In this document: positions 1,249-31,014 of the stretch, one piece after another
Layout: each line of letters opens with the position of its first letter
How positions within the stretch are numbered: position 1 is the stretch's first letter
Assembly: GCA_016700135.1 (NCBI GenBank)
Contig: CP065004.1
Coordinates: 510,001 to 542,000 of the forward strand
Source of the DNA: Candidatus Saccharimonadota bacterium
GTDB taxonomy: Bacteria > Patescibacteriota > Microgenomatia > UBA1406 > GWC2-37-13
DNA: 32,000 bases
Direction: 5' to 3'
Position numbers and translations under genes: made by a program
The notes under the pieces: model-generated
What the model was told of the DNA's origin: nothing
What the model saw: the letters and a program-made list of their open reading frames with translations, nothing else
The model's database searches: none

Positions 1249-1266
1249 TCTTGGTATACTTTCTTC

Positions 1267-2617: not shown

Positions 2618-3270
2618 CAAAAACGAAACCGACATCACCGAAAAAATCAACGACACAGGACTTTATCGAAATCGAAGATATCAAAGACGATATTGTTCTG
2701 ATGAAGGACTTTTCAGCAGCAACCATCATTGAAGTGGGTGCGGTCAATTTCTGGCTATTATCCGCTGAAGATCAGATGTCTATGATCTATACATACGGAA
2801 GTCTGCTGAACTCTCTATCCTTTCCGGTCGAGATCGTTATTATCTCAAAAATGATGAATATTGCTTCATATATTGAGTATCTGCAGGCAAAGATTGAAAA
2901 TCAGAAAAATGAGGTTATCCGAACACGTCTTGAGGATTACCGTGAATTTATCAAAATGGTTGTCAAGAAGAATACGGTCATGGAAAAAAGATTTTTCTTT
3001 TCCGTTCCGTTCAATCCCCTTGAGATGGGAGTGACGGGGATGAAAGCTCAGAAGTACGGTAGAGAATATATTCTCAACAGGGCAAAAACCTCGCTGTATC
3101 CGAAGCGTGATCATTTATTGAGACTCCTTGCAAAAGTAGGACTTAAGCCGACCGTACTGCAAAAGCAGGAGTTAACGGAGTTGTTCTACAATCTTTACAA
3201 CCCGTCAGCAACCGGTAAGCAGCTGGCTCCGATTGACAGTTATGTCGACGTGGTTGTCACAAACGGCTAA
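2614..3270 (+). CDS. T4SS-associated protein resembling the N-terminal region of Gram-positive VirB4 (TrsE/PrgJ-type) ATPases
   Basis: 218 aa. TQDFIEIEDIKDDIVLMKD...IIEVGAVNFWLLSAEDQ matches my recollection of the TrsE/PrgJ N-terminal pattern. Translationally coupled to the upstream gene and followed 13 nt later by the ATPase ORF. Confidence 0.45.
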   Translation: MTKTKPTSPKKSTTQDFIEIEDIKDDIVLMKDFSAATIIEVGAVNFWLLSAEDQMSMIYTYGSLLNSLSFPVEIVIISKMMNIASYIEYLQAKIENQKNEVIRTRLEDYREFIKMVVKKNTVMEKRFFFSVPFNPLEMGVTGMKAQKYGREYILNRAKTSLYPKRDHLLRLLAKVGLKPTVLQKQELTELFYNLYNPSATGKQLAPIDSYVDVVVTNG

Positions 3271-3283
3271 TTTTATAGTATTT

Positions 3284-8968: not shown

Positions 8969-9003
8969 TTAGGAGTTATGACTGGCAGTACAATAGAGAT
9001 CTT

Positions 9004-12197: not shown

Positions 12198-13000
12198 AAG
12201 ATAGAGCGTATCATTTCAATTTTAGGCTGATAAAACGGAGTTGTAAATCGGGTTTCCTGTCCTTCTTCATCGGAAGGCATCCATTCCAGCGTTTTGAGTA
12301 CGGCGAAATGCTTTTGAACTGATGTCTCAGGAGGAATCCCATAACCGGACCAAAAAGGAGATGACGATTCAGGATGAGCGTGTTCGACGGACATAAGGAC
12401 GACCGCAAAATCTTCATAAGGAGATGCAACATTTGCAGTTTCCCAATCAATAACCGAAGAAAGTTCGAAGTGTTCATTCACCCGTCTTCCGATATAGTTA
12501 GAAAGCCAGTAATCGCCGTGTATCCAGGATAGGCCCCTTTTTTCAATTTCATCCTGTTTGTATGTTTCTGTCAATCCTTCAAGAAGTGCAAACGGTTCGA
12601 TTTTCAGATTCCTCAAATACGGATCAGCTCCGTGGACGAGTTTAAAAATCCTCTGCATATGTGCATCGTGAAATCCGGGAACGACCGGGTATCTGATCTG
12701 TTGATGGATGTGTGCAAGCGTTTCTCCGGCTTGTCTGTAAATTTGCATTCTGACTGCTTCAGGATAGCTGTCAATTTCACCGTCCAGATATTTTTCGCCC
12801 TCAACATATGACATTGCAATTCCGCCAGTCGTAAATCCCCGAAATTCAGGGGCTACATCTATTTTTTTCATAGATATGTATTCGGCCCTTCTTCTTTGGT
12901 CAGGCGGAGTACCGATCCCGTTTCCTGTATTAAAATGTTTTGTTATGGTGCCGTTTGTCCGGAATAACGAGTTAACTGTACCTCCTTCCAGTTCTTTCAT
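12194..13000 (-). CDS. APH/choline-kinase-family phosphotransferase
   Basis: 268 aa. Catalytic loop is WIHGDYWLSNYI (HGDxxxxN) and the metal-binding segment is VIDWETANVASPYEDFA. Confidence 0.7.
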   Translation of the reverse strand: MKELEGGTVNSLFRTNGTITKHFNTGNGIGTPPDQRRRAEYISMKKIDVAPEFRGFTTGGIAMSYVEGEKYLDGEIDSYPEAVRMQIYRQAGETLAHIHQQIRYPVVPGFHDAHMQRIFKLVHGADPYLRNLKIEPFALLEGLTETYKQDEIEKRGLSWIHGDYWLSNYIGRRVNEHFELSSVIDWETANVASPYEDFAVVLMSVEHAHPESSSPFWSGYGIPPETSVQKHFAVLKTLEWMPSDEEGQETRFTTPFYQPKIEMIRSIL

Positions 13001-13872
13001 ACGTGTTGCTTAAAATAACTGACATCAATTTGTGTCATAGCCTGTTGAGCCTGTTCCAAATACTCATCGAGTCCTATGGAAACCATTGATTGCGGTGTCC
13101 CTTCTCGGGTTTTATTGGTTGACCAGTTGATGACGGCATCAGGAGTGAGAGGGAAATCGGCAATAACCGAGAAAAATTCCGGATACCACTCCCCGAGATC
13201 GGTGAAATTGGCATAAACGATTTCGCCGTCAGAAAGGGCTTCTCCGAGTGACCGGACATAAGGTCTATGGGTAAAATTCCCCTGGGAAAAGAGTACTTGT
13301 GTATCACTTAATGCTTTTCTGGATTGCTGATATGCAGCATCGCTTGCAAGAAAGTGTTTGTCTCCGAAAGATTCCCGCTCAACATGGTAGTACGATTCTG
13401 CATCGACCTGTTCAAGCTTCATCAAGCCGAAAAGCTCGTCAAGCTGTGCCAGTTCCAGATAGTCCTCTTTCGTCTCGGCGTTCCTGATGGTATCTACCAT
13501 TTTGAACACCTGATCGAGGACAAAACTGTTTCGGTCAATACTCACAAGACAATCAACATCAAGATAGGGAGTGACGGTGAGAAGTGCTCCTACTCCGGAG
13601 ATGATTCCGACACGGGGTTTCCCGTTGCGTTTCTGCCTTGATATGTTTTGGCCGATCGTATCAAGGGAATCGGCAAATCCCAAATCATTTGTATAAATCC
13701 AAGGAACAAGTTTGGTCCGCAGCTCACCCCGTTTTGACATCGGGATATTCGCAAGAGCTTGTCTCATGTGTTGGATATTCATATCTTCAATAGCAAACTG
13801 ATAATTCAGGGCGTTGAAGTATTCAGGTTTCATACGCTGAGCAGTATATGGAGACCTGATGATGAAACACAT
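12997..13872 (-). CDS. Hypothetical protein, first gene of the kinase/isomerase operon
   Basis: A 291-aa ORF overlapping the next gene by 4 nt. A weak Rossmann-like stretch (VGIISGVGALL...LVSIDRN) is present. The start could instead be the internal Met at 13833 (MKPEYF). Confidence 0.5.
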   Translation of the reverse strand: MCFIIRSPYTAQRMKPEYFNALNYQFAIEDMNIQHMRQALANIPMSKRGELRTKLVPWIYTNDLGFADSLDTIGQNISRQKRNGKPRVGIISGVGALLTVTPYLDVDCLVSIDRNSFVLDQVFKMVDTIRNAETKEDYLELAQLDELFGLMKLEQVDAESYYHVERESFGDKHFLASDAAYQQSRKALSDTQVLFSQGNFTHRPYVRSLGEALSDGEIVYANFTDLGEWYPEFFSVIADFPLTPDAVINWSTNKTREGTPQSMVSIGLDEYLEQAQQAMTQIDVSYFKQHV

Positions 13873-13880
13873 GACAAAAC

Positions 13881-13896
13881 TGTCCAGAAAGCTGAC
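13881..13896. promoter_or_regulatory. Degenerate copy of the GTCAG/CTGAC motif (TGTCCAGAAAGCTGAC)
   Basis: 13 of 16 positions match TGTCAGGAAAACTGAC. Lies in the 47-nt divergent intergenic region between 13872 and 13920. Confidence 0.35.
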
Positions 13897-13907
13897 AGTT
13901 CATTGAG

Positions 13908-13913
13908 TATAAT
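13908..13913 (+). promoter_or_regulatory. -10 hexamer TATAAT located 6 nt upstream of the STAND-1 ATG (leaderless-type start)
   Basis: The sequence reads TATAAT-atgtgt-ATG(13920). STAND-2 has the same geometry. Confidence 0.45.
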
Positions 13914-13919
13914 ATGTGT

Positions 13920-16175
13920 ATGACAAAGCTCTCAGCGGGGACAGGCTTTGCATCGCTTTTCAAAAAATACAGACTTCGTTCGGAGATAGAGACACTATCA
14001 GAGTTCGGAGATATCCTTGCTGAAGAGGGGATGGTCTACGAAACCAGTTTATTTACTAAATGGCAAAGCGGATACAGGACCCCCAGGGACCGCCGCTTAC
14101 TTCTTACGATAATCCGAATATGCAATAAGCGGGGCGGAATACGGCTGATTCGTGAAGCAAACGCACTTCTTGAAGCGGCCGGACAGGGATACATGACGGA
14201 GAGTGAGATCTCAGATATCCCTGCACTTCACCGACAATTTTCTTTCCAGGCACCAAGGAAAATCGCATACTATATCGGAAGGCAACTGTATATCACAAAG
14301 GCCACAAATGCTCTGACTGAAGGGAAAACGGTACTGCTGTACGGGCAGCCCGGGATCGGGAAAACGGTTATCGCAGGAGGAATAGGACACGATGTGGCTC
14401 ATCATTTTCCGGACGGAGTGTATTGGTATCAGCTCCAATCATCAACAGTAATGGATATTCTGGCTTCGATCGCAGAAATATTCGGGCACAACGTCCGCAA
14501 TATCGAGGATTTAACAATCCGGGCATCGGTTGTGAGATCTTTGTTAGTCAACACGAAAGCTCTTTTTGTCTTTGACAATCTGGAACATGAAGATGATATT
14601 GATTTTCTTCTCCCGAATACCCGTTCGTGTGGAGTGCTTTTCACTTCGATCCATCCGTGTATACATGCTAGAGGTATTGACGAAAGGATACAGGTACAGC
14701 CGTTTACGAAGAATGAGGCACTGTATCTGTTTCATGAGATACTGGGCGAAACATATACGCAACTCCATACACGTGATATATTGAAGCTCTACGCTCTTGT
14801 TGAGGGACTTCCACTTGCGCTGCATGTTGCGGCCAAACAGGTACTGCATTTCAAAAAGTCACTGCAGGAGTTGATTTCTCATATAGAAAACACCAGGACG
14901 AATTTAGCGGATTATGCATATGAAAATAAGAGTATTTCATCTGTTCTGCAGATCTGTTTTGAGAAACTGAAGCCTAGGCAGAAGGAAGTATTTTCTTCTC
15001 TGGCTGTATTTTCAGGTCGGGATTTTTCCGTACAGGCTGTGGCATATATTAATCGGATGACTGTTGCGGATGCACAGAGACAGCTTGAGTCCTTGTACGG
15101 TTTTTCATTGATTGATCAATCAAATCACAACAGATATCGCATGCACCCCTTTATCCGCATATTCGCTCTCTCTCACGTGAAACAGGACGTGTATGTCAGG
15201 GCAGTTCGGTGCTACTTGAAAACGATCAAAATGAAGCGGAAAACATACTTCCTTTTTGTCCGTCGGGAACTTGATAACATACTGCCGCTTCTTGATAAAA
15301 CGCTTTCCTCAGAAGTATGGAGTTCCGTTTCGGAGATTTGGGAATATCTGTCTGATTACCTGTGGAATGCAGGGCGCTGGGACGATCTCAAAAGATACAG
15401 CAAGCATATCTACAGGCTGAGCGGTAAACACAAAGATTATGCTGCTAAAATCCGTGTGTGTTTACTCTCCCTCAGCCTGGTGTATTACTGGAAAAATCAA
15501 CTGAAACGTTCTGAACGGTATATCAGGGAAGGGCTGAGTTTGGCATCAAAGATAAATGACCGGTATCTGGTGATGCTGGGAAAGCAGCGGCTGGGACGAG
15601 TCCTAATGAATACGAGTAAGTTTGAAGAATCTGAGCATTTGCTTGAGGAGGCAAAGACATATTTCTTAAGCGTCCACGACCAAATCCAACTTGCGATAAC
15701 CATCACAAATATCGGAGAAACGGAACTGAGGAAAGGGCATTTTGATACTGCTCTTACGCATTTTTATGAAGCTTATCAATACAGCCGGAGTATCCAGGAT
15801 ATATCCATGAAAAACATATGTCTGGCAGAAGTTCTATTCTATATCGGAGGATTGAAGTTGTTGAAGAAAGATTGGGATGAAGCACAGAGAAGTTTTGTTG
15901 GCGGTTTGGAATATTGTAAAAAAATTAACGAATACTCGGAGATTTCAGTCATGGGATATATTGGGCTCGCCTTGTGTTTCGAATACTTTGGACAGATAGG
16001 ACCTGCTAAAGAAAGTTATCACCGTGCCCGTGAACAGATAGAATTTCTTGGGATTGATAAGTCTCTTTTTCATCATGATACTCTTTTTTCTATCCTGAAA
16101 AACGAGATTGTTGAAAGCCCGATCTGCGGGTCATTAATGGGTAAAGAGGAGAGAGAAGTGACTCTAAATACTTGA
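13920..16175 (+). CDS. STAND NTPase: XRE-type HTH + NB-ARC P-loop + TPR repeats (paralogue 1)
   Basis: The start at 13920 (MTKLSAGT) matches the paralogue's N-terminus. Walker A is GQPGIGKT, Walker B is LFVFDNLEH, and the NB-ARC signature is EGLPLAL. The C-terminal about 300 aa is TPR-like. Confidence 0.8.
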   Translation: MTKLSAGTGFASLFKKYRLRSEIETLSEFGDILAEEGMVYETSLFTKWQSGYRTPRDRRLLLTIIRICNKRGGIRLIREANALLEAAGQGYMTESEISDIPALHRQFSFQAPRKIAYYIGRQLYITKATNALTEGKTVLLYGQPGIGKTVIAGGIGHDVAHHFPDGVYWYQLQSSTVMDILASIAEIFGHNVRNIEDLTIRASVVRSLLVNTKALFVFDNLEHEDDIDFLLPNTRSCGVLFTSIHPCIHARGIDERIQVQPFTKNEALYLFHEILGETYTQLHTRDILKLYALVEGLPLALHVAAKQVLHFKKSLQELISHIENTRTNLADYAYENKSISSVLQICFEKLKPRQKEVFSSLAVFSGRDFSVQAVAYINRMTVADAQRQLESLYGFSLIDQSNHNRYRMHPFIRIFALSHVKQDVYVRAVRCYLKTIKMKRKTYFLFVRRELDNILPLLDKTLSSEVWSSVSEIWEYLSDYLWNAGRWDDLKRYSKHIYRLSGKHKDYAAKIRVCLLSLSLVYYWKNQLKRSERYIREGLSLASKINDRYLVMLGKQRLGRVLMNTSKFEESEHLLEEAKTYFLSVHDQIQLAITITNIGETELRKGHFDTALTHFYEAYQYSRSIQDISMKNICLAEVLFYIGGLKLLKKDWDEAQRSFVGGLEYCKKINEYSEISVMGYIGLALCFEYFGQIGPAKESYHRAREQIEFLGIDKSLFHHDTLFSILKNEIVESPICGSLMGKEEREVTLNT

Positions 16176-16176
16176 A

Positions 16177-16770
16177 TTATTCACATTGAAAGAAATAAGA
16201 TCCGATACTATCATTTGTCCACTTTTCATTATCTTTCGGAATATTTTGCCAAACCTCCATACCTCTCCCTGATTTTTTTGAAAAGGTAAGAAATTCATAG
16301 TTATAAACACGATTATAATTCTCTTTCTTCACAGGTCGTACCGCTTGGATAATATTGTTTTCATCTTTAATTATGGTGTAGTCTTCCAAAGGATCCATAG
16401 ATCCTGTATCACGAGATCGAATGATCTTGTCATTTTGAAATGTGAGACTAAAGCGTATTGATTCACTTTTTATCATCATGGCTGTTGTCCTGTTTCCGTC
16501 TTTTAAGCTATAAAGGCCGTCATTCAATTGTTGATTTGTATATGCAGTACATTTGAGTTTTTCTCTAAAGGTAAATGTATTTACCCTATCCGGAAGAAAA
16601 CAGTTTGTTTGATAATCTTCCCAAAAGTTACTCTGACTAAAACAAGTAAGCCTATCTCGAGGGATAGAACTGATGTCGTATAGTATAGTAGGCCAGCGAG
16701 TTCCAAAGAAAAAGGCAGCTATGGAAACTAGTAAGAAAAGTATAATGGTAAATACTGTTTGCTTTTTCAT
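16177..16770 (-). CDS. Hypothetical secreted or membrane-anchored protein
   Basis: 197 aa with an N-terminal hydrophobic signal/anchor (MKKQTVFTIILFLLVSIAAFFFG). TGcATAAT lies 6 nt upstream of the ATG on the minus strand. Confidence 0.55.
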   Translation of the reverse strand: MKKQTVFTIILFLLVSIAAFFFGTRWPTILYDISSIPRDRLTCFSQSNFWEDYQTNCFLPDRVNTFTFREKLKCTAYTNQQLNDGLYSLKDGNRTTAMMIKSESIRFSLTFQNDKIIRSRDTGSMDPLEDYTIIKDENNIIQAVRPVKKENYNRVYNYEFLTFSKKSGRGMEVWQNIPKDNEKWTNDSIGSYFFQCE

Positions 16771-16852
16771 ATTTCAATTATGCAATAAGGGAAATGGATT
16801 TACCTTCCTATCGATTGATTGGGAGGTAAGAAACTACTCAACAGACGGTTGA

Positions 16853-17260
16853 CTATCCCTTCGTGCAGCCAGGCCATGATGATCGGACATCGATGAGAAT
16901 TCGAACCCAGTCACCAGACATACTTGTCGGGATGCTTAAAGAACAGCCATTGTAAACACGACGGCCATCGGGGTAGCGGACTCCGTAGTCCACATACAAA
17001 CTTCCTTTCCACCACCAATTTGAGAGGCGATACTCATTGACAAGGGGATTAAACTCCCTGTACCAAGAAACCGACTGCCCATTGTGATTTGTCCCATAGA
17101 CGCGGATCCAGGCGATACCTTGTGCCCCTGAATCGGATGCCTTCTGGAACAAAAGTTGCTGCCCATTACTTCCAGCCATGACTTCGTGAGATGGTATGAT
17201 ACTGACCATGCTCACAACCAATGCAAGCACCACTACTACAAACGTGAGTTGCCGACGCAT
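16853..17260 (-). CDS. Small secreted protein, Trp-rich, compositionally distinct
   Basis: 135 aa. Signal peptide is MRRQLTFVVVVLALVVSMVSIIPSHEVMA. A clear AAAGGAG Shine-Dalgarno sits 7 nt upstream. The gene is visibly more GC-rich than its neighbours. Confidence 0.6.
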   Translation of the reverse strand: MRRQLTFVVVVLALVVSMVSIIPSHEVMAGSNGQQLLFQKASDSGAQGIAWIRVYGTNHNGQSVSWYREFNPLVNEYRLSNWWWKGSLYVDYGVRYPDGRRVYNGCSLSIPTSMSGDWVRILIDVRSSWPGCTKG

Positions 17261-17408
17261 GTTCGAGCTCCTTTCACTTGATGCGTCACAGATTGTTGAG
17301 TTGTACTAAGATACCATCATAACTTTCTCACAGCTTTTGTGAAAAAGTTCACAGGTACTTAGAACGATATTATTCTATGAAGGACTTATATATTTATGAA
17401 TGACTGCT

Positions 17409-17426
17409 TTGTCAGGAAAACTGACT
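17409..17426. promoter_or_regulatory. Palindrome-containing motif TTGTCAGGAAAACTGACT, copy 2
   Basis: Exact 18-nt match to 11588-11605. The surrounding 29 nt (GAATGAC....TTGTCAGGAAAACTGACT) differ at only 3 positions. Ends 10 nt upstream of the STAND-2 -10 element. Confidence 0.5.
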
Positions 17427-17436
17427 GGAAATGTAA

Positions 17437-17442
17437 TATAAT
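17437..17442 (+). promoter_or_regulatory. -10 hexamer TATAAT located 6 nt upstream of the STAND-2 ATG
   Basis: The sequence reads TATAAT-tacatc-ATG(17449). Confidence 0.45.
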
Positions 17443-17448
17443 TACATC

Positions 17449-19584
17449 ATGACAAAGCTCTCAACGGGGACAAGCTTTGCCCAACTATTCAAAAAATACC
17501 GGCTTCTTTCGGAAATTGAAACCCTCGCAGAATTCGGCGATCTTCTTGCAGAGGAAGGGTTTGTGTATGAAACAAGTCTTTTCACCCGTTGGCAAAAAGG
17601 AGACCGCGAGCCAAAAGAAAGACGGGTGCTTCTTGCAATACTGCGAGTATTCGCCAAAAGAGGCGGAATTGTGAGTATAGAGGAGGCGAATTCTGTCGTC
17701 CAATCTGTCAATCAGAAAGATTTAACACATGAAGAATCTTCAGCTCTCTCTGAATTTATTCAAACCTCAAATACTAAAACATTACCGGTAAAACCATACC
17801 TTTTTGTCGGCCGGGATGAATTGTTAAAGGATTTATCTTGGGAGCTGATTAATAAAAAGAAAGTATTGCTATACGGGATGCCAGGAGTGGGTAAGACATA
17901 TATTGCAATATATTTAGCACACCAGTTGAAAAATTTCTTTTCCGATGGTATTTTTTGGTTCCGTGCTGATATCAAGAGTTATGATGATATTGTGGATGAG
18001 TTATTGAGTAGTTTTGGCTTAAATGTTTCGCTAGGGTCAAGCGAAGAAGTGAAATTGGAGAAGCTAAATTCAGCTCTTAAGAATAGAGATATTTTAATTA
18101 TTCTAGATAATATTGATAATGATCTGTTTACAAAAAGATTTGATATTAAAGCACTACGTATCCCGATATTAGCTACTTCTGTGAGGAAATTATCATTGGA
18201 ATTTTCTACATATAAAGTTCACCCTTTTTCTGTAGAAGAGTTTATGAAGTTAAGTGAAAAAATATTGGGGAAACCATACCTTTTAACTAATAAGCTTGAT
18301 ATTGAAGATATCGGGAAGAAAATTGGATATTTACCTATTTCTTCACTACTTACAATTAAACAGGTCTATTTATATCCTACTGAAATTAAAAGTATAACTT
18401 CAAAATTTGATAATTCCAACTTAAAGCTAGACACACTAATTTATGACCATAAGAGTTTATCTGTAACTATTGATCTAGTGTTTCGAAGGTTACAATTAGA
18501 TGAAAAAAAAGTATTAGTAGCATGTGCTGTCTTTGAAGGTCAAGACTTTGATATAGAGCATGTGTCAGTAATAACGAATATTAGCAAGAAGAGCATTCAG
18601 AGTTTCTTTAATAAGTTAATAGAAATTTCTCTACTTGATTTGTCAGTTACAAATAGATATAGATTGCATCCTGCCATACATGCGTATTTGCGAACTAGAG
18701 TTGAATCTACAACCATAATAAATCTCATGAAACTTTATGTTAATAATTTAAAGAAAGTTAGCATTGGAAGTGATAAATACCTTGCATATTTCAATAAAGA
18801 ATATGAAAGCATTATTGGCATCATTAACCAAGGATATAAGTTTGGCCAATATAAATTGGTCACACAAATTTGGCAATTTGTAAGCACGTACATTTTCATC
18901 AGTGGGGATTGGGGAAAAATACTACAATTTTCATCAATTATCGAGGACTCCTATCGAAAAATAAATGATAAATATGGACTAGTTATTTATTGGATAGAAG
19001 ATCTGGGCAGAGTATACTTTTTCCAAAAAGATACTATTAATGCTAGAAAACTGCTACAAGAATCATCTAAAATCGCACGATCTCTTCAGGACAATTCTCT
19101 GTTAGGTTTGATTTCGCAAAAATATGGAGCTTTGTATAGCTCTATTAACAAACTCGATTTAGCTGAGGAGCATCTATCTAAAGCAATAGAGCAATTGCAA
19201 ATTACCAAGCTAATTGGACAACTGGCAAAGACTTATGCATATTTAGGAATGGTTTACGCAAAACAAGGAAAGGATTCTCTTGCGATAAAATATATGGGAA
19301 AAGCACTTAGAGATATCCAGCACATTGAAGATATACCAGTGATTGGATATATATATGTTTACTTAGGCAATTCATATTTAAAGATTAATCAATTACTAGA
19401 TGCCGAATTCTATTTAAGAAAAGGATTGAAGTACTCTGTTAAAAGAAATGTTCTTATTTGCTGCGCTCTAGCATATGAAGGTTTAAGCGAATTGTGCCAG
19501 AAAAAAAACAAAATGTATCTTCAAAAAAAGTATCTTACTAAAGCACAGGAGCTTTATTCTGCCTTGGGTATGCATTCATCCTAA
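17449..19584 (+). CDS. STAND NTPase: XRE-type HTH + NB-ARC-like P-loop + TPR repeats (paralogue 2)
   Basis: 711 aa. By hand alignment, the first about 80 aa are roughly three-quarters identical to paralogue 1. Walker A is GMPGVGKT and Walker B is ILIILDNIDN. The GLPLA-equivalent is degenerate (IGYLPIS). The C-terminus is TPR-like. Confidence 0.8.
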   Translation: MTKLSTGTSFAQLFKKYRLLSEIETLAEFGDLLAEEGFVYETSLFTRWQKGDREPKERRVLLAILRVFAKRGGIVSIEEANSVVQSVNQKDLTHEESSALSEFIQTSNTKTLPVKPYLFVGRDELLKDLSWELINKKKVLLYGMPGVGKTYIAIYLAHQLKNFFSDGIFWFRADIKSYDDIVDELLSSFGLNVSLGSSEEVKLEKLNSALKNRDILIILDNIDNDLFTKRFDIKALRIPILATSVRKLSLEFSTYKVHPFSVEEFMKLSEKILGKPYLLTNKLDIEDIGKKIGYLPISSLLTIKQVYLYPTEIKSITSKFDNSNLKLDTLIYDHKSLSVTIDLVFRRLQLDEKKVLVACAVFEGQDFDIEHVSVITNISKKSIQSFFNKLIEISLLDLSVTNRYRLHPAIHAYLRTRVESTTIINLMKLYVNNLKKVSIGSDKYLAYFNKEYESIIGIINQGYKFGQYKLVTQIWQFVSTYIFISGDWGKILQFSSIIEDSYRKINDKYGLVIYWIEDLGRVYFFQKDTINARKLLQESSKIARSLQDNSLLGLISQKYGALYSSINKLDLAEEHLSKAIEQLQITKLIGQLAKTYAYLGMVYAKQGKDSLAIKYMGKALRDIQHIEDIPVIGYIYVYLGNSYLKINQLLDAEFYLRKGLKYSVKRNVLICCALAYEGLSELCQKKNKMYLQKKYLTKAQELYSALGMHSS

Positions 19585-19653
19585 TTATCTCTCTAAATAT
19601 GTTGCTGTATAATAAATTGAGCGGAAATCAAAAGTATTATTCTCACAATTGAT

Positions 19654-20678
19654 ATGAATTCTATAAGAGACCTTGATCTTCAAACTTTTTTTGATGAAAA
19701 GTCTCCACAAGATAAAATCAAATTTTTGTTGCAACTTGCAATGCTTGCACCATCGACTCATAACAGTCAACCCTGGCTTTTCAAAATAAAAAGCGGATCT
19801 TGTGAAATTCATGTAGATTCTAAAAAAAAATGACAGCCTCTGATAAAAGTGGACGAAATCTATATATTAGTATTGGAGCATGTTTAGAAAATTTGGTTAT
19901 AGCTTCGAAATTTTTTGGTGTTTACAGTCATGTTAAATATCATAAAAACATTAAAGATGATTCCGTATGTGAAGTATACTTTAATAATCTTACTGGTTTA
20001 ATTGCGAAACCAAATCTACGACACAAGTTGTTGGTAAAAGCTATTCTAAAAAGAGTTACAAAGCGAGCATTTTATCATAAAAGGCAAGTCCCCAAAAGTA
20101 TAATTAATGCATTAGAAAAACTTTCAGTTCATGAGCATATTAAGGTTAATGTACTAACCACCAGTGAGAAGTTAAATCAATTTACAGATATAACAATAAA
20201 AGCTATTCAATCTGGGTATAGTGATAGAGCTTTTCGGAAGGAATTATCGCAGTGGATTAATAATAACCTATCAGATCGAAAAGAAGGTATTCCTGGATAC
20301 TCATTAAATATGCCATTTATTGTATCACTGTTATTCCCATTCCTATTAAGGAATATAAACTTGAGTGAATTAGTAGCACGAATTAACAAGAAAAGTCTGA
20401 AGACGATGTCTGCTGTGTGTATTGTAACCTCAGCCACTGACACAAAACGCGATTGGTTAGAAATAGGACGAATATCTCAAAGAGCATTGCTAATATTAAC
20501 TAGCAAAGACTTGAGCACATACATAACAGTCGCTGCAGTCGATATAGATAATTACTATCTAGAAGTTCAAGAGTTATTGAATACGTCTTGGAGACCACAA
20601 TTTTCTTTTACTTTTGGCTACTCTAATATTGTCTCTAAATTCCCCCCGAGACATTCCGTCGACGAAAAATTAATATAA
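19654..20678 (+). pseudogene. Acg-type nitroreductase family gene interrupted by a frameshift at an A9 tract
   Basis: A 59-aa N-terminal piece (19654-19833, MNSIRDL...LAPSTHNSQPWLFKI...VDSKKK*) carries the nitroreductase signature. The 282-aa remainder (19830-20678) is in the -1 frame. One extra A in the run 19822-19830 would fuse them. Confidence 0.7.
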
Positions 20679-20694
20679 TTTACAATTATGCGTG

Positions 20695-22194
20695 ATGAAT
20701 AATTATATAACGAAGTATGAATCTCTATTAAGGAATAATAGTTCGAGTTATTGGCAAAAAAAAGGAGAAATTAAAGTACTAGAACTATTTCATAGTATGG
20801 CACAAAGGGTTCCTGCCTATAGAAAATATCTACAAAATCTAGCAATAAAACATCAGTCAGTTAAAACAATTGCTGACTTTAAGCAGATTCCACCCATAGA
20901 CAAGGAGAATTACCTAAGAAGATATTCTCTTGAAGAACTATGTTGGGACGGTTCCTTTAATAAAGAACAATGGATAATATCAACAACTTCAGGATCAACT
21001 GGAGAACCTTTTTACTTCCCTCGTACTAACGCTCAGGATAGAGAGTACGCTTTAACAGCAGAGTTATATTTAAGGAATAACTTTAGTATTGAAAGAAATA
21101 CTACGTTGTATATTAACGGGTTTGCTATGGGGGCATGGATAGGTGGAGTTTTTACATATCAAGCGATCACAGATATTGCTCAAACAGGGAAATACCCCTT
21201 AAGTATAATTTCACCAGGAATCTTTAAGCCGGAAATAATTAAAGCTATTAATAATCTAGGAAGTAAGTTCGACCAGATCATTATTGGCGGTTATCCCCCG
21301 ATGATTAAGGATATGATCGACGATGCTATACAATCAGGGATAGACTGGTCTAACTATAATGTGGGATTTGTTTTTTCAGCAGAAGGATTTTCTGAAGAAT
21401 TTAGATCCTATATTATTCGGAAAGCACAACTAGCAAACTACTATACTTCGACGATTAATCACTACGGTTCGGTAGATCTAGGAACAATGGCACATGAAAC
21501 GCCATTAAGTATTTTTATTCGTAAGGATCTAATTTCTTCTCCCAGAAGATATATCAATATTTTTAATGATTTCTATCGTTTACCTACTTTAGCTCAATAC
21601 AATCCTTTACAGTTTTACTTTGAAGAGGTAGACGAGAGGCTGTATTGCTCTGCTTATAGTGGGATACCTTTAGTTAGGTATGATTTAAAAGACCATGGTG
21701 GTGTTTATGGGTTTGATGAGATGCTTGCGCTTTATCAGTCAGATGGCATATCTCTAATGGAAAAAATTAAAGGTCTAGAATTAGGGAAATCAATTTGGAG
21801 ATTACCGTTTGTTTATGTTTATGAGCGCAGTGACTTTATTGTGAAATTATATGGGGCAAATATTTATCCTGAGACTATTCGGAAAGTATTAAATTCTTAT
21901 TTTGCAAAACAACTAACTGGAAAGTTTACTGCGGAAATAAATTATGATGACGATCACAATCAATATTTGGTCATAAATATTGAAATGAAAAAAGGAGTAA
22001 AACAAACTAAAGTACTTATAAAGCTGTTAACTGATGAGATAACAAAGAGATTGTTAAAAGAAAATTCAGAATTCCGTTCAAACTATAAAGAAAGTCCCCT
22101 TAGGCAAAGGCCACATATAGTTTTATGGGAGTATGAAAGTTCAAAATATTTTACACCTGGAGTAAAGCAAAAATGGGTGCTTAGTGAAAAATAA
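20695..22194 (+). CDS. PaaK / coenzyme F390 synthetase-like adenylate-forming enzyme
   Basis: About 499 aa with the AMP-binding P-loop-like motif STTSGSTGEPFYFPRT. The ATG at 20695 is preferred over the GTG at 20692. Confidence 0.65.
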   Translation: MNNYITKYESLLRNNSSSYWQKKGEIKVLELFHSMAQRVPAYRKYLQNLAIKHQSVKTIADFKQIPPIDKENYLRRYSLEELCWDGSFNKEQWIISTTSGSTGEPFYFPRTNAQDREYALTAELYLRNNFSIERNTTLYINGFAMGAWIGGVFTYQAITDIAQTGKYPLSIISPGIFKPEIIKAINNLGSKFDQIIIGGYPPMIKDMIDDAIQSGIDWSNYNVGFVFSAEGFSEEFRSYIIRKAQLANYYTSTINHYGSVDLGTMAHETPLSIFIRKDLISSPRRYINIFNDFYRLPTLAQYNPLQFYFEEVDERLYCSAYSGIPLVRYDLKDHGGVYGFDEMLALYQSDGISLMEKIKGLELGKSIWRLPFVYVYERSDFIVKLYGANIYPETIRKVLNSYFAKQLTGKFTAEINYDDDHNQYLVINIEMKKGVKQTKVLIKLLTDEITKRLLKENSEFRSNYKESPLRQRPHIVLWEYESSKYFTPGVKQKWVLSEK

Positions 22195-23249
22195 TGGAAC
22201 CAATAATTTTAGATGAGTTTAAATATTCTTTAGAAGACATTCAAAAATTGTCTAAAGAACATCCTATCACAGAAAGGAAAGACTTATATTGTGCTCAATT
22301 AGCAGAGCTTTATGAAGTTAATTATCCTGCAAGGAAGCTTCAAAATTCTACAAATAAAAAAAAATTTTTTAATGATAAGCTCAGTCCAAATGCTGATATC
22401 CGTGGAAATTGGGTATATTTCCCATGGAATGGACATTTGATCCACACACTTAATAGGGATGACTACTTTGAGCTAAGAACAAATCGTAACCAACTGCTGG
22501 TTTCCACTCAGGAGCAGAAGAGAATATATAGAAGTACAGTAGGCGTTTTAGGGTTATCGATCGGCAGTCATATCGCCGTAAATCTATGTCAACAAGGGAT
22601 TAGTAAAACGATCAAAATTGCAGACGATGATTCTATCGATACAACAAATTTGAATAGAATTAGAGGTAGTTTAATTGATGTCAGCAAAGACAAAACTGTA
22701 AGTGTACAAGAAAAAATCCATGAATTAAATCCTTATAACAAGGTGGTTTCGTTTGGCAAGCTTACAGAGGAAAATCTCCCTATGTTTTTGGGGAATTCAC
22801 CTAGGCCAAATGTGATAGTGGAAGTCATTGATGACTTTAAAATGAAAGTACATTTGAGATGTCTTGCACGAAAGTATAGAATACCCGTTATCATGCTCTC
22901 CAATGTAGCTGATAACATTATTATCGATGTTGAGAGATATGATCTTTCTTCGAATCTATCCTTCTTTAATGGGTTGCTAGGAAATCTTCCAGAACAGATT
23001 ATTAGAGAGCCAAATACTGATCCTAATATTCTTGCAGTCGCTATGGTCGGTAAAGAGCTTATTCCCGATAAAGCCCTAAAGTCTGTTAAAGAAATTGGAA
23101 AAACACTTGTAGGAAGGCCACAACTTATTAGTACAATTTCAGTGTCAAGTGGGATAGCCACTTATATGATACGAGAAATTTTATTAGGAAATGATCAGAT
23201 ACAAGGGCGGAAGGTGTTAAGGCTTGATGATATCTTCTATAAAGAATAG
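22194..23249 (+). CDS. E1-like ThiF/MoeB-family adenylyltransferase with an N-terminal extension
   Basis: 351 aa. The nucleotide-binding region is VGVLGLSIGSHIAVNLCQQGISKTIKIADDDSIDTTNLNRI. Its start overlaps the upstream stop (TAATG). Confidence 0.65.
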   Translation: MEPIILDEFKYSLEDIQKLSKEHPITERKDLYCAQLAELYEVNYPARKLQNSTNKKKFFNDKLSPNADIRGNWVYFPWNGHLIHTLNRDDYFELRTNRNQLLVSTQEQKRIYRSTVGVLGLSIGSHIAVNLCQQGISKTIKIADDDSIDTTNLNRIRGSLIDVSKDKTVSVQEKIHELNPYNKVVSFGKLTEENLPMFLGNSPRPNVIVEVIDDFKMKVHLRCLARKYRIPVIMLSNVADNIIIDVERYDLSSNLSFFNGLLGNLPEQIIREPNTDPNILAVAMVGKELIPDKALKSVKEIGKTLVGRPQLISTISVSSGIATYMIREILLGNDQIQGRKVLRLDDIFYKE

Positions 23250-23676
23250 TATACTTTTTCTATGGAGCTATTCGTTCTATTTATTGTCTTAATAATAAGC
23301 ATTGTACTAAGTCTTTTCGTTATTCATAGTAATCCTAATAGCTTTACCAATCGTTTATTTGTTATTCTTAACGCTACAATTTTCGTTTGGGCAATTATTA
23401 ATAATCTATCATTACAGGCTACCAACGAAGCAACAGCATTATTATGGATGAGACTTACAACTTTTTTTGCTGTTCCACAAGCTGTTTTAGTATACCTATT
23501 AGTACAGAATTTACCGTTTGATAAACGTCTTGTCAGTAAAACTCAACTATTCCTTCTCTTATCTATATCATCGTGTACCATGCTTTTAACATTGTCTCCG
23601 TGGGTATTTAGTAATGTAGTCCTAACTCCAACAGGCTATACTCCAGTTATAGGAATGGCAATGCCGATATTTGCAA

Positions 23677-24391
23677 GGCTCTAGACTAGCACATTAACAA
23701 TTTGTAATAGTTCATTGTAAAGGATCGATGGGGATTTGCTCCATCTCCATTCACACTCTTTCAAGTGTAATGGAAAGTTTTTCTTTACACCATTGAACTT
23801 AACGAGACGTCTTTTACAAAAGGACCAGAATGACTCTATGCCATTGATATGGACCCCTTTTGTATTTGAGAACTCATTTTTCTTGTGATTGATTCTCAAA
23901 TGTTTGTCATACCCGACATCAACAAGTCCGTTGTATCCGCTCCACGAATCTGAATATACAGTACTGTTCAAGTCAATCTTTCCCTTCATAACAGCATGTA
24001 GCGTTCTTCTTTTACAGTTTGGAATGATACGAGTAAATACACGTCCTTGACGCTCATATATCCCAAATACTACCTGCTTAAATGACGTCCCACGACCTCT
24101 TTTACTTGACTTGCCTCTCATCCTTCGAGGTCCAAAGTATGATTCATCAATTTCTATCTCACCACCAACATATCGTTGCATCTGGTGCACTTGGTGATGA
24201 TATATGAGTTGACGAATATTATTGTAATATTTGTTGACTGTATTGCGGTTGAGACCCAAAATACCAGAGGTCTGTGTAGCACTCAGATCGTGTGCAAAAC
24301 ACCATAGTATCTTTTTTCTCTTGTATTTTGATATCGGCCTATTGTTACAAACCATACCTCTAGTTTAGCACTACTCTGCTAGTCTAGAGCC
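23677..24391 (-). mobile_element. IS1595-family insertion sequence, copy B (715 bp, inverted relative to copy A)
   Basis: Same 15-bp terminal repeats and an identical transposase translation. Flanked by the direct repeat TTTGCAA (23670-23676 and 24392-24398). Confidence 0.85.
23681..24355 (-). CDS. IS1595-family transposase (identical to 8290-8964)
   Basis: The 224-aa translation is identical to copy A. Confidence 0.8.
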   Translation of the reverse strand: MVCNNRPISKYKRKKILWCFAHDLSATQTSGILGLNRNTVNKYYNNIRQLIYHHQVHQMQRYVGGEIEIDESYFGPRRMRGKSSKRGRGTSFKQVVFGIYERQGRVFTRIIPNCKRRTLHAVMKGKIDLNSTVYSDSWSGYNGLVDVGYDKHLRINHKKNEFSNTKGVHINGIESFWSFCKRRLVKFNGVKKNFPLHLKECEWRWSKSPSILYNELLQIVNVLV

Positions 24392-26169
24392 TTTGCAATT
24401 ACTGTTACAATAATCTCTATTCTTGCGATTACGATTTTAGTTAGAAGATTTATTCGGTCGAAGGGAAATACAAAAAATCAATTAGGATATGTCTTGTTAG
24501 GCTTAGAATTGATGCTGGGATTAATTATTGGAACGATAATCTTTCCACTAATTGTTTATGGCAGCATCTTTTTTGTGGCATTTGCACCAATGTATGCATT
24601 ACTTTTCTTAACTTTCACAGCATATGCGATTGTAAAGCATCGCCTTCTTGAGGTACGCGGACTGGTTGCAAAAGCTGTAACTTATACAATTTTATTAATA
24701 TTAATTGCTTCTTTTTATACGTTAACGACATATGGTGTTGTTACGTTATTTTTTCATGAGTCTATTCCGGCGAGATATCTTATACTCTTTAGCTTACTTT
24801 GTCTTTTTATTGCACTATCTTTTTCGTGGATTAAAAAAATAACTGAAAAACTCACCGACAAAGTATTCTATAGAGACCATTATGATGCAAATGATTTGCT
24901 TTGGAGTCTGAGCCGTATTATGGCATCGACACTTTTGTTGTCAGATTTAGTCAAACAAATACTGGATAAACTCCTTGAACAAATGAAAATTAATTACGGT
25001 GCTGTAGTTCTGGTAAAAAATAAATCCATTTTTTGGGTTGAAAGCGCAGGAGAAGTCTCGAAGCATCCGTTTGACAATGCCGGGGCGTACACCCTCGTTT
25101 ATGATTCCTATCACACCACAAAACACAACGAGCATATCTTTATTTTTGAGGAACTTCCTGAAGGGAAAATTAAAAAGCTTTTGAGGAAACAGGACCTCAC
25201 AGTGATTATTCCTCTTACGGTCAGACATGAACTGATCGGCGGCTTGATGTTGGGTCAAAAATCCTCCGGAGAAATATATTCATCCGAAGATGTCGAGGTT
25301 TTGAAAATCCTGGCTCCGGAAATCGCCGTAGCTGTCAGGAACGCCCTCTCTTATGAAGAAATTAAAAAATTCAATATTACTCTTGAAAATGAGGTTGACC
25401 GTGCTACAAAACGACTCCGTGCTGCAAACCACAGATTGAAGGAATTAGACCACTTGAAAGATGAATTCGTATCAATCGCTTCTCATGAGCTCAGAACCCC
25501 CATGACGGCCATAAAAAGCTATCTGTGGATGGCGATACATCAGCCGCAGCAGAGCATCAAGAATCCTCTTAAGAACTATCTTGATATTTCTTACAACTCC
25601 ACAGAACGTCTGATTCGGCTCGTAAATGATATGCTGACGGTGTCGCGGATAGAAAGAAACAAAATCGAGCTTAAGAAGGCGCCAATTGATATTATTGAGG
25701 TTGCGGAGCTTGTACATAATGAGCTGAAAATAACTGCGGATGAAAAAAGTATCTCTTTTGTTTTTGAACATCCCAAAAAGAAACTGATTGTAGACGGAGA
25801 TAAAGATAAGCTGCGGGAAGTCATTCAGAATATTGTCGGTAACGCACTGAAATTTACACCTGATAAAGGTACGATCACCATAAGAGCAGAAGAAAAGGGG
25901 AATCTTGTCCATCTTTCTGTCACCGATACGGCATCAGGAATCCCCAAAGAAGAACTGCCGAATCTCTTCAAAAAATTCAGTAAAATTGAGTATTCTTACT
26001 CTAAACACAGCAGCCAGCCCGGGACGGGTCTCGGTTTATATATCTCCAAACAGATTGTTTCTTTACACAACGGCGATATTAAAGTACAATCAGAAGTAGG
26101 TGTGGGAAGCACCTTTACCGTATTATTACCTCTTTATAAAGGGAAAGGCGGTGAAAATGAAAAGTAACT

Positions 26170-26580
26170 ATGTCAACAGACACAGATAGGTCTAAAACCA
26201 TTTTAGTCGTCGAAGATGAAGAGTACTTACGTGATCTGTATGTCCAGATACTGAAGCAGGAAGGATACAATGTTGAAGTCGCCGTAAACGGTGAAGAAGC
26301 CTACCAGAAAATGTCTCAAAAAGATTATGACCTTGTGATTCTGGATGTCATACTTCCGAAAATGGACGGTCTTCAGGTAGTAGATAAGCTGAAAAATGAG
26401 GGACATTCCGTCAACAAAAATGTCGTCCTGCTGTCCAATCTCGGACAGGAGCTCGTTGCTGCAAAGGCAATCGACTTAGGAGTGAGAGGATATATGGTTA
26501 AGAGTGACTATACACCTGAAGAACTGGTGAAAGAAGTCGGCGGTTATCTGACAGACGACGGACCGAAATCAGAACTATAA
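26170..26580 (+). CDS. Single-domain (CheY-like) response regulator
   Basis: 136 aa. ILVVEDEE, DLVILDVILPKMDG and a conserved Lys region (YMVKS). No output domain. Begins 2 nt after the kinase stop. Confidence 0.8.
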   Translation: MSTDTDRSKTILVVEDEEYLRDLYVQILKQEGYNVEVAVNGEEAYQKMSQKDYDLVILDVILPKMDGLQVVDKLKNEGHSVNKNVVLLSNLGQELVAAKAIDLGVRGYMVKSDYTPEELVKEVGGYLTDDGPKSEL

Positions 26581-26581
26581 T

Positions 26582-27427
26582 ATGGAACATTCATTTATGC
26601 ACAATACATCTAAAGCCGGGCAAAGAGGACAAGCTCTTATTGTTCTTGTGCTTATGATCTCAATTATCCTTGCTATTGTCAGTGCAACTTCATATCGACT
26701 GACCACAGAAACGCAAACGACCAAAGCGCAGGAAGATTCCGTACGTGCGCTGGCTGCAGCCGATGCCGGAATTGAAGTGGGGTTGCAGCGCGCGAATAAT
26801 TTACCGGCGCAAACGTATACTTTTGCGGATTTGAGTTTGAGCCTTGCCGGTGTCGACTCAACAAGAAGCAGAGTCCTTATTACAGATACCAGCAGTGATT
26901 TTGTATCTCCAGTTATACCAAAAGACGGCCAGTTTACATTTTATGTCAAAGATTATAATGATCCGGCAGCTCCCAATTATGCTTCAAATATTGCGATCAA
27001 TTTCCGTTCGGAGTCGGGTAACTCATGCGGTGCTCCGCGGACTCAGCCTGCGTATGAATTGACTTATATTTATGGCCCGACAGCCAATCTGGTCCGCCGT
27101 ATGCTTGTTGAGCCTTGTACGGGTCCTCAAGCAATATCGGGAAATTCGTTTACTGCGGCAAATCCCGGATTGTATGTAGTTGCAGCAACTAACTTTGAAC
27201 ACCGAACTGTAATCAATCCCGCAACGTCCGGAATGGCAGATATGAGAGTCATTATCATCCGCCCGATATTCGGATCGGCCCGTTTCGGATTTACCGGGAC
27301 CAATCTTGAACCTCAGGGCAAGCTTATTAGATCAGAAGCATACACTACATCCGGACCGTCAAAAATTGTTACCATCTTTCAGTCTCTTCCCCAAATTCCG
27401 GCAGAATTTTTCGTGACGACATTCTAA
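26582..27427 (+). CDS. PilX-N-like putative minor pilin / pilus-associated protein
   Basis: 281 aa. The N-terminus (GQRGQALIVLVLMISIILAIVSATSYRL...AAADAGIEVGL) resembles the PilX N-terminal domain. Confidence 0.45.
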   Translation: MEHSFMHNTSKAGQRGQALIVLVLMISIILAIVSATSYRLTTETQTTKAQEDSVRALAAADAGIEVGLQRANNLPAQTYTFADLSLSLAGVDSTRSRVLITDTSSDFVSPVIPKDGQFTFYVKDYNDPAAPNYASNIAINFRSESGNSCGAPRTQPAYELTYIYGPTANLVRRMLVEPCTGPQAISGNSFTAANPGLYVVAATNFEHRTVINPATSGMADMRVIIIRPIFGSARFGFTGTNLEPQGKLIRSEAYTTSGPSKIVTIFQSLPQIPAEFFVTTF

Positions 27428-27430
27428 AAA

Positions 27431-28156
27431 TCAGGTGAATTTTTCGAAATGTACTTGATCTCGGGGAATATTTTTTGAAGCAAGATATTCTTTCAAAGAC
27501 TCCACTACGTTCGGACCGCCGCAGATATAATAGTCGTAATTATTCAGAGTTTCTCCTTCCATGGCTTCCAGACCGTGGGTCACCCGTCCGATCATACAAT
27601 GAGGATTATCGGACTGTTCCTCCCGGGAAAGACAAATCTTTAGAGAGAAGTTTTCATACTTCTCTGCCAATTCTTGTAGTTCCTTCATGAGATACAGATC
27701 TTTTTTGTATTTCATTCCCCAAAAGAGTTTCAGTTGTTTTCCGCTTACAGAATCGGTTTCAAGCAGTGTTTTAACCATACTGTAAATCGGTGCTATACCC
27801 GTACCAGTTGCCAGGAAAATGCTGTCTTTATCTGATTCTTTGTAGGTAAATAATCCTGCGGGTCCCTGTAATGTCGCTTTTTGCCCGACGGGAAGCTCTT
27901 TTACAAACATACTTCCCAAACCGTTCGGAATAATTTCGATAACAAAATCGATATGATCTTTCTCAAGCGGAGAAGATGCGATTGAGTAAAGTCTTCGTGC
28001 TGGATGTCCCTTTTCCTCCTTAGGAATATGAAAAATCATGTATTGACCGGCTTTGTATGTCCAGTCAGCCTGATCAGGATACGAAAACTTCAAAAGATAA
28101 ATTTCGGGAGCGATTTCTGTTTTTTCAAGTAAAGTTGCCTGATAGGTGATAAGCAT
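27431..28156 (-). CDS. Ferredoxin-NADP reductase-like FAD/NAD(P)-binding oxidoreductase
   Basis: 241 aa. FAD-binding motif is RRLYSIASSP and NAD(P)-binding motif is LATGTGIAP. C-terminal motif is YICGGP. Confidence 0.75.
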   Translation of the reverse strand: MLITYQATLLEKTEIAPEIYLLKFSYPDQADWTYKAGQYMIFHIPKEEKGHPARRLYSIASSPLEKDHIDFVIEIIPNGLGSMFVKELPVGQKATLQGPAGLFTYKESDKDSIFLATGTGIAPIYSMVKTLLETDSVSGKQLKLFWGMKYKKDLYLMKELQELAEKYENFSLKICLSREEQSDNPHCMIGRVTHGLEAMEGETLNNYDYYICGGPNVVESLKEYLASKNIPRDQVHFEKFT

Positions 28157-28226
28157 GTTTGATATGGTGGGCTACTGATAACTGAATAGTACATGATACC
28201 ATAGCCGACCTGAATTATTCCTAAAA

Positions 28227-30584: not shown

Positions 30585-30645
30585 AAAATAATTATACAGG
30601 AAATCCACGTATCGGGATATTTAAGCTGTAAGAGGAGGGTAAAAA

Positions 30646-31014
30646 TCACTTCAAAAGAGCGTTTACTTTCTCTACAAATTGAGGCGGCGACATATCGCTT
30701 TTTATCCAGTGGTCAGCCGCTTTTGCCAGTCTCTTTTTATCATTATCACTGGCATCAAGATTGGTCAAAAAAATTACCGGGCATTTTAGCTTTATCTGCT
30801 CTTCGGTTAAAGCATCCATAATCTCAAACCCATCCATACCGGGCAGCATTACATCAAGGAGTACGAGATCCCAGGTATTTTTTTTAATCATATCAAAAGC
30901 CTTCTTGCCGTCAACGGTCCCCGTGACATCATAGTGTTCGTTTTTCAATAGATCGGAATAGAGCTGATGCAGAAACTGATCATCCTCAACAAGAAGTATC
31001 TTTTTTTGAGCCAT
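30646..31014 (-). CDS. Single-domain (CheY-like) response regulator
   Basis: 122 aa. ILLVEDDQ and DLVLLDVMLPGMDG, with no output domain. Immediately downstream of the pilin gene. Confidence 0.8.
   Translation of the reverse strand: MAQKKILLVEDDQFLHQLYSDLLKNEHYDVTGTVDGKKAFDMIKKNTWDLVLLDVMLPGMDGFEIMDALTEEQIKLKCPVIFLTNLDASDNDKKRLAKAADHWIKSDMSPPQFVEKVNALLK

Follow-up and report, generated by a model that had tools for sequence, protein, structure and literature searches.

A putative oxazolone-type biosynthetic operon with a two-component sensor, conserved in Patescibacteria

Experimental work has shown that bacteria form N-acyl oxazolones with pairs of an ATP-dependent cyclase and an O2-dependent desaturase, namely Rv1355c (TrzS), TyzB/TyzC, and OxzB (PMC10404671, PMC12856293, preprint 10.1101/2020.06.11.147165). 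TrzS converts N-acyl-tryptophan to N-acyl tryptazolone (PMC12856293). TyzB/TyzC from M. tuberculosis and OxzB from Pseudoalteromonas rubra act on tyrosine or phenylalanine conjugates (PMC12856293, PMC10404671, preprint 10.1101/2020.06.11.147165). The natural oxazolones known derive from aromatic amino acids; their physiological role in bacteria is openly stated to be unknown, and they resemble signalling molecules (PMC12856293). According to a 2025 review, no ThiF-like enzymes other than the oxazolone synthetases are known to have a small-molecule substrate (PMC12596934). A related set of genes lies in a stretch of 32,000 nucleotides from Candidatus Saccharimonadota bacterium (assembly GCA_016700135.1, contig CP065004.1, positions 510,001 to 542,000 of the forward strand), here called the window. 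It encodes a nitroreductase-fold flavin-dependent oxidase (FDO), a PaaK-like ligase, and a ThiF-like adenylating enzyme, followed by a seven-transmembrane (7TM) histidine kinase and a response regulator. The operon probably encodes a small-molecule pathway of the oxazolone type that is coupled to a two-component sensor, a putative function proposed from homology to the systems above.

Relation to known oxazolone synthetase systems

An earlier note on this DNA had described positions 17449 to 23249 as a cassette of four genes, for a STAND NTPase, a nitroreductase, a PaaK-like enzyme, and an E1/ThiF-like enzyme, which together matched no system that it could name. The E1-like/nitroreductase-fold pair does match the oxazolone synthetases OxzB, TyzB/TyzC, and TrzS (= Rv1355c); no description of the operon as a whole was found in the literature on Patescibacteria and the candidate phyla radiation. 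The four plus-strand genes are spaced as had been noted, with gaps of 69 and 16 nt and an overlap of 1 nt, except that the nitroreductase is not one open reading frame (ORF) and lies in two frames. The conserved unit extends past position 23249 to the kinase and the response regulator. The genes are as follows.

17449..19584, plus strand: STAND-type protein, 711 aa, with an N-terminal helix-turn-helix (HTH)-like domain, P-loop/NB-ARC, and TPR
19654..19833, plus strand: N-terminal FDO fragment, 59 aa, frame 1
19822..19830, plus strand: A9 homopolymer that breaks the FDO frame; A10 gives a single 341-aa ORF
19830..20678, plus strand: C-terminal FDO fragment, 282 aa, frame 3, matching the Acg-family model
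20695..22194, plus strand: PaaK-fold adenylate-forming (ANL) ligase, 499 aa, ATG start, with an alternative GTG at 20692
22194..23249, plus strand: ThiF/E1-like adenylating enzyme, 351 aa, homologous to the TrzS/Rv1355c cyclase half
23262..23675, plus strand: 5' part of the 7TM histidine kinase (residues 1-138), Pfam HisKA_7TM, ending at the insertion sequence
23676..24391, minus strand: IS1595-family insertion sequence (IS) inside the kinase gene, transposase at 23681-24355
24392..26167, plus strand: 3' part of the histidine kinase, with the remaining transmembrane helices, GAF, HisKA, and HATPase_c
26170..26580, plus strand: single-domain response regulator, 136 aa, receiver only (PF00072 only, on the identical-position gene of locus L085)

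In the TrzAS system of M. tuberculosis (Rv1356c/Rv1355c), one half of TrzS is homologous to the ThiF-like cyclase and the other to the FDO, and fusions of cyclase and FDO also occur in Patescibacteria. The adenylation Asp is conserved, and a ScyB-like dehydrogenase found in many clusters recalls the aromatic amino-acid theme. In the window, however, the two domains are encoded by separate genes with the PaaK-like gene between them, and there is no TrzA-type acyltransferase. The cluster further adds a dehydrogenase or aminotransferase, the 7TM kinase, and the receiver, and its hosts are Patescibacteria instead of mycolic-acid bacteria. The TyzACB operon (Rv2336-Rv2338c) shares separate genes for the ThiF-like enzyme (TyzB) and the FDO (TyzC) in one operon, as well as a small-molecule substrate (PMC10404671). 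TyzA is an acyltransferase of the acyl-homoserine lactone (AHL)-synthase/FeeM fold that uses acyl-coenzyme A (acyl-CoA), whereas its place would here presumably be taken by an ATP-dependent PaaK-fold ligase; the tyz operon also comes without a two-component system. OxzAB of Pseudoalteromonas rubra likewise relies on a ThiF-nitroreductase pair, which makes an oxazolone from an N-acyl aromatic amino acid (preprint 10.1101/2020.06.11.147165; PMC12596934), but OxzB is a fusion with the N-acyltransferase OxzA as partner, and there is no PaaK-like ligase, dehydrogenase, or kinase. The operon would work like the known oxazolone synthetase systems but differs from them in its first enzyme, its extra conserved partners, and its host range, and since it has no acyltransferase partner it is not filed here as a member of them.

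The ThiF-like protein finds its best NCBIfam model in PRK07877, the 'Rv1355c family' (E 1e-63, 215 bits, model positions 26-337), while models of ThiF, MoeB, TcdA, and E1 reach at most 62 bits, with ThiF next best at that score. It corresponds to the N-half of this family and the FDO to the C-half. The ATP-site residues R98, G120/S122/G124, D146, N152/N154/R155, K167, and D213 are invariant among 33-62 homologues. From its motif position, D213 is inferred to be the equivalent of the adenylation-motif Asp D217 of TrzS, a residue that TrzS cannot lose without losing cyclisation. No conserved Cys, whether of a CxxC zinc site or catalytic, was found across the family alignment. Of the residues that the earlier note had named for checking, the ATP-binding Arg and Asp are invariant and a Cys is not conserved; its motifs TSGSTGEP and GLSIGSH...DDDSIDTTNLNRI are both found in the translations. 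The AlphaFold2 (AF2) model of the ThiF-like protein has a confidence score (pLDDT) of 91, and Foldseek against the PDB, which has no structure of an oxazolone synthetase, returns only generic E1-like folds (AclA, PaaA, ThiF, MccB, TcdA).

Sulfur-carrier activation of the ThiF/MoeB type, for thiamine or molybdopterin, would agree with the Pfam ThiF domain and with public annotations as 'molybdopterin/thiamine biosynthesis adenylyltransferase'. Such ordinary cofactor biosynthesis is extremely improbable given the missing zinc site and catalytic Cys and the scores, which are 29-62 bits on models of ThiF and MoeB but 215 bits on that of the Rv1355c family. In addition, no conserved ThiS or MoaD neighbour occurs in about 80 loci, nor any by Pfam and NCBIfam in the window. 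Assignment of the enzymes to thiamine or molybdopterin ThiF/MoeB, or to capsule CapK, had been named beforehand as what would speak against a special system; they belong to neither.

In the FDO, the 59-aa fragment covers positions 2-35 of the Acg-family model (E 6e-11) and 369-412 of the Rv1355c family, and the 282-aa fragment covers Acg-family positions 38-318 (E 6e-39). Among solved structures, Acg (2YMV) is the nearest. A second, divergent FDO subtype is found in many clusters (L023:12613-13665, L013:4925-5989), with PRK14851 and the Rv1355c C-half as best models instead of Acg, so that the operon uses at least two FDO lineages. Natural ThiF-FDO fusions occur at loci L025 and L043, and the former scores 382 bits on the Rv1355c-family model.

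The PaaK-like protein has weak sequence matches to PaaK and FlxY, with 34 bits on TIGR02155 against an equivalog cut-off of 646 bits, and a profile search of PDB sequences with its alignment gave weak PaaK matches only. Its AF2 model (pLDDT 85.7) is matched by Foldseek to PaaK1/2 and BT_0428 at E 1e-21 and to the amide ligase ClxA at E 1e-14. The protein has the P-loop TSGSTGEP and an invariant C-terminal Lys, K491. Structure prediction yields a PaaK fold for the ligase, beside E1-like folds for the ThiF-like enzyme. PaaK is the best structural match and shares the P-loop and the Lys, but the PaaK-like protein is about 70 aa longer, has no paa genes near it, and is always paired with a ThiF-like enzyme. 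ClxA, from closoxazole biosynthesis, also has a PaaK-type fold and has been described as an amide- and ester-bond ligase (PMC9400959, PMC12519233); its identity is about 14 %, its substrates are aminohydroxybenzoates, and neither a ThiF nor an FDO partner occurs in its cluster. Relatives of the PaaK-like protein number in the thousands, nearly all unnamed or labelled 'phenylacetate-CoA ligase'; with clusters drawn at 50 % identity, at least 830 representatives reach E <= 1e-30.

Conservation of the operon across Patescibacteria

A scan of species-representative genomes gave 80 loci, all of Patescibacteria type, from Roizman-, Woese-, Gottesman-, Magasanik-, Doudna-, Kaiser-, and Adlerbacteria, Paceibacterota, and Saccharimonadales. 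The PaaK-like gene is the founding gene of the conserved cluster, and genes within 6 kb of it were counted at 55 fully flanked loci, with ORFs labelled by phmmer, BLAST clustering, and tblastn. Full-length matches to the ThiF-like enzyme were detected by tblastn at all 55 loci and the FDO at 43, so that the trio is co-localised in other genomes, a point that the earlier note had left to comparison. The 7TM histidine kinase is present at 52 by phmmer; tblastn with a 50 % coverage rule gives 42/55, which undercounts divergent kinases. Response regulators occur at 36 loci, an ELFV-type amino-acid dehydrogenase at 34, a class I/II aminotransferase at 17, one or the other of these two at 51, and an alpha/beta hydrolase at 14. 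The dehydrogenase has its best match in ScyB, a tryptophan dehydrogenase (275 bits). A Roizmanbacteria sub-lineage, comprising the window, L001, and L005, has neither dehydrogenase nor aminotransferase but an HTH-type regulator upstream.

The core genes are closely spaced, with a median gap of 6 nt, and the kinase follows immediately after a core gene in 59 of 65 loci (median gap 7 nt). Natural fusions join ELFV to PaaK-like, PaaK-like to ThiF, ThiF to PaaK-like, and all three as ELFV–PaaK-like–ThiF, and FDO is also found fused to a hydrolase. That the three enzymes are one functional unit, as the earlier note had suggested, is supported by this near-universal operon-like co-localisation and by the fusions. 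The same does not hold for the STAND gene, which it had counted in and which neighbours the cluster only in the window itself (1/55) and at none of the other 54 loci.

An island for anti-phage defence or ubiquitin-like protein (Ubl) conjugation, in which the STAND NTPase would be the sensor and the E1-like enzyme the effector arm, would fit the position of the STAND gene, weak PADLOC E1-E2 matches (<=34 bits) over the Rossmann core, and the richness of the window in mobile-element genes. It is very improbable, because the STAND gene is so rarely a neighbour and matches PADLOC models only in P-loop segments, no E2, JAB, Ubl, or CD-NTase was found, and the scan returned no copy on viral contigs. 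Without a conserved Cys in the ThiF-like family and without an E2 or JAB partner, Ubl conjugation, raised as an option in the earlier note, is unlikely. Searches of the window with Pfam and NCBIfam detected no YcaO, SagB, ocin_ThiF_like, E2, JAB, or Ubl, which bears out the absence of YcaO, Ubl, E2, and JAB partners noted before.

The earlier note had also seen no substrate gene, and among ORFs of 15-69 aa none is conserved in more than two of about 80 loci (ORFs below 15 aa were not surveyed). The lack of such a gene is accounted for if the core acts as oxazolone synthetases do, on small molecules. Maturation of a ribosomally synthesised peptide has also been considered; here the ThiF-like enzyme would activate the C-terminus of a very short precursor, as MccB or PaaA do, and the FDO and PaaK-like enzyme would decorate it. 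MccB and PaaA are among the Foldseek matches, and the MccB alignments, of about 340 columns, may include the N-terminal domain. Precursors of the MccA type can be as short as 7 aa, below the 15-69 aa surveyed, and a 17-aa ORF with a terminal Asn, at 19599-19652, immediately precedes the FDO. Peptide modification, which the earlier note had brought up, is nevertheless unlikely in view of the missing conserved ORF of 15-69 aa, the abutting core genes, the 215 bits for the Rv1355c family against 22 bits for MccB, and the lack of a conserved exporter or peptidase. The 17-aa ORF, MLLYNKLSGNQKYYSHN, was rejected as a precursor. It terminates in Asn like MccA and is identical in L085, but it is absent from L001 and L005 and is thus probably a chance ORF.

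Several copies of the cluster carry labels from outside Patescibacteria. Typical Patescibacteria-type clusters occur in metagenome-assembled genomes (MAGs) labelled 'uncultured Gammaproteobacteria' (L025, OZ246401.1), 'Polyangiaceae', and Kapabacteria (L087), and one oddly labelled MAG with the cluster is a complete chromosome of 0.94 Mb; these labels are probably wrong. A decayed copy lies at L088:6843-9826 (CP070635.1, labelled Thermoplasmatales archaeon), where the PaaK-like gene is reduced to its last ~55 codons, the ThiF-like and FDO genes beside it are intact, and the 7TM kinase survives as a truncated fragment. This copy reflects either a transfer of the cluster out of Patescibacteria or a wrong label on the genome.

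Predicted pathway and its alternatives

With moderate confidence, we propose that the FDO/PaaK-like/ThiF-like core, as a Patescibacteria-wide operon, makes a cyclised acyl-amino-acid metabolite of the oxazolone type and is co-transcribed with the 7TM-GAF kinase and the receiver. In most lineages, a ScyB-like (aromatic) dehydrogenase or class I aminotransferase would first interconvert an amino acid and its 2-oxo acid; this gene is not in the window. The dehydrogenase–ligase fusion suggests that the enzyme may supply the acid or amine partner of the ligase. The PaaK-fold ligase would then adenylate a carboxylic acid and couple it to an amino acid, for which ClxA is a precedent. By homology to TrzS, TyzB, and OxzB, the ThiF-like enzyme is predicted to adenylate the amino-acid carboxylate, with the amide oxygen closing the oxazolone ring, and the homologous FDO would desaturate the C-alpha/C-beta bond. 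Judging from gene order, the kinase and receiver might sense the product or control the operon.

Several points weigh against this proposal. The scores of 215 bits for the ThiF-like protein and 382 bits for the L025 fusion stay below the 476-bit equivalog cut-off of the Rv1355c family, which makes the pair a related subfamily and not TrzS itself. The FDO of the window scores higher on the Acg-family model than on the TrzS C-half, and no FDO was found near the cluster at 12 of the 55 loci. FDO desaturation in the known systems requires O2, and many Patescibacteria are anaerobes. No N-acyl-amino-acid synthase of the OxzA/TyzA/TrzA type (AHL-synthase/FeeM fold) was found in the window or among the conserved neighbours at about 80 loci, and the dehydrogenase or aminotransferase has no place in the canonical oxazolone pathway. 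Finally, the PaaK-like enzyme could be a plain CoA ligase, amide formation being a proposal by analogy.

One alternative is a pathway that breaks down or salvages aromatic amino acids or aryl acids. There, the dehydrogenase or aminotransferase would yield an arylpyruvate, the PaaK-like enzyme would be a CoA ligase, the ThiF-like enzyme and FDO would process the product, and the kinase would sense the nutrient. The fold, shared with the CoA ligases PaaK, BT_0428, and HCL, speaks for such a pathway, and so does the presence of a ScyB-like dehydrogenase or aminotransferase at 51 of the 55 loci, sometimes fused to the ligase. The 34-bit PaaK match lies far under its 646-bit cut-off, though, and the conserved surroundings of the cluster contain no further genes of the paa set or of beta-oxidation. 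Moreover, no ThiF-like enzyme is known in catabolism (PMC12596934), and the ThiF/FDO pair matches oxazolone synthetases, which are biosynthetic. We regard the catabolic pathway as unlikely.

If the oxazolone-type pathway holds, it would include a predicted new route to the acyl-amino-acid precursor, with an ATP-dependent PaaK-fold ligase instead of an acyl-CoA or acyl carrier protein transferase. These organisms are not known to have fatty-acid and CoA biosynthesis, and such a ligase route would fit this. It would also offer a functional lead for the protein family of at least 830 cluster representatives, now named 'phenylacetate-CoA ligase' or 'hypothetical protein'. In at least 150 species of this metabolically minimal phylum, homologues of oxazolone synthetases share a transcription unit with a sensor kinase, so that a signalling role is directly testable. 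A self-contained chemical signalling circuit across many classes of Patescibacteria, whose capacity for biosynthesis is very small, with its product sensed by the co-operonic 7TM-GAF kinase and receiver, is a possible, if rather unlikely, further step. No autoinducer or host-sensing system would have been proposed for Patescibacteria before it, and it would give bacterial oxazolones their first assigned physiological role.

Lesions, regulators, and surroundings in this strain

The operon of this strain appears crippled by the FDO frameshift and the IS-split kinase. The two FDO fragments align colinearly to the intact 342-aa orthologue of L001, the 59-aa piece representing its residues 1-58 and the C-terminal fragment sharing 41 % identity (tblastn). 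L085, assembled independently from a strain that is 99.2 % identical, has A10, an intact FDO of 341 aa, and an intact kinase of 727 aa. The A-run indel is the sole gap in the 10,980-nt alignment of the window with L085, which speaks against widespread homopolymer errors. Even so, one isolated sequencing error, or slippage in the A9 tract, may account for the indel.

The kinase is split at codon ~138 by a 716-bp IS1595 element. Its 5' part matches residues 1-138 of the L001 kinase and its 3' part residues 137-717 at 62 % identity (both by tblastn), the latter carrying Pfam GAF_2, HisKA, and HATPase_c. The IS at 23676-24391 (NCBIfam transpos_IS1595, E 2e-48) has terminal inverted repeats of 22 nt and a 7-bp target duplication, TTTGCAA, which is present once at the empty site of L085. 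Two lesions in one operon suggest that its function has been or is being lost in this strain. A second IS1595 copy at 8254-8970 is 100 % identical, in opposite orientation, with its own 7-bp duplication TTAGGAG. The two identical copies with target duplications point to recent IS activity in the genome. Identity to L085 falls from 99.2 % at 12698-23676 to 94.3 % at 24392-30918, past the IS site, and a recombination boundary may coincide with the insertion point.

The STAND protein has weak NB-ARC, AAA_22, and TPR matches as well as matches to the TPR regulators AfsR and HaaT, and it is similar to regulators of the AfsR and MalT types. Its N-terminal 101 aa are 62 % identical to a 371-aa regulator that lies in the same position at the sister locus L001 and carries HTH_31 and an MmyB-like ligand-binding domain; similar regulators stand upstream of the cluster in L005 and L011. 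The shared N-terminus and position make the STAND protein look like a DNA-binding regulator with a swapped sensor module and not a defence sensor. PADLOC found no defence model in it beyond P-loop segments and gave no defence assignment for the locus. It is probably a lineage-specific transcription regulator of the operon and would have replaced the MmyB-like regulator in this lineage. A paralogue lies upstream, outside the conserved unit.

13914..16175, plus strand: paralogue of the STAND regulator, with an N-terminal HTH-like domain, NB-ARC, and TPR

The paralogue matches Pfam NB-ARC (E 1e-17) and TPR_12, and it is 30 % identical to the product of the 17449 gene over 674 aa, far closer in the first ~100 aa.

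The AT-richness remarked in the earlier note is real, with a GC content of 0.30-0.35 at 18-25 kb against 0.40-0.45 in the flanks. The FDO, PaaK-like, and ThiF-like genes are 8 points below their flanks in the window and below flank GC at 56 of 61 loci (L001-L084 and the window; median -3.3 points), so that low GC characterises the cluster family and is not peculiar to the window. At 17000-27600, predicted promoters and terminators were about as numerous as in shuffled sequence, and these scans are uninformative on operon structure. Neither Rfam at its gathering thresholds nor a tRNA scan gave any match across the whole window, and so no clue to a riboswitch. Genes typical of mobile elements or resembling type IV secretion are abundant at 385-5059, 9004-10041, and 28227-30608 and include two integrases, one a tyrosine integrase and one of the rve type, as well as PrgI, a VirB4/TraG-like ATPase, and a TrwB-like coupling protein; an integrative element may contain or adjoin the operon. 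Between the STAND paralogues, at 16177-17260 on the minus strand, two small ORFs of 197 and 135 aa have hydrophobic N-termini that resemble signal or membrane-anchor segments.

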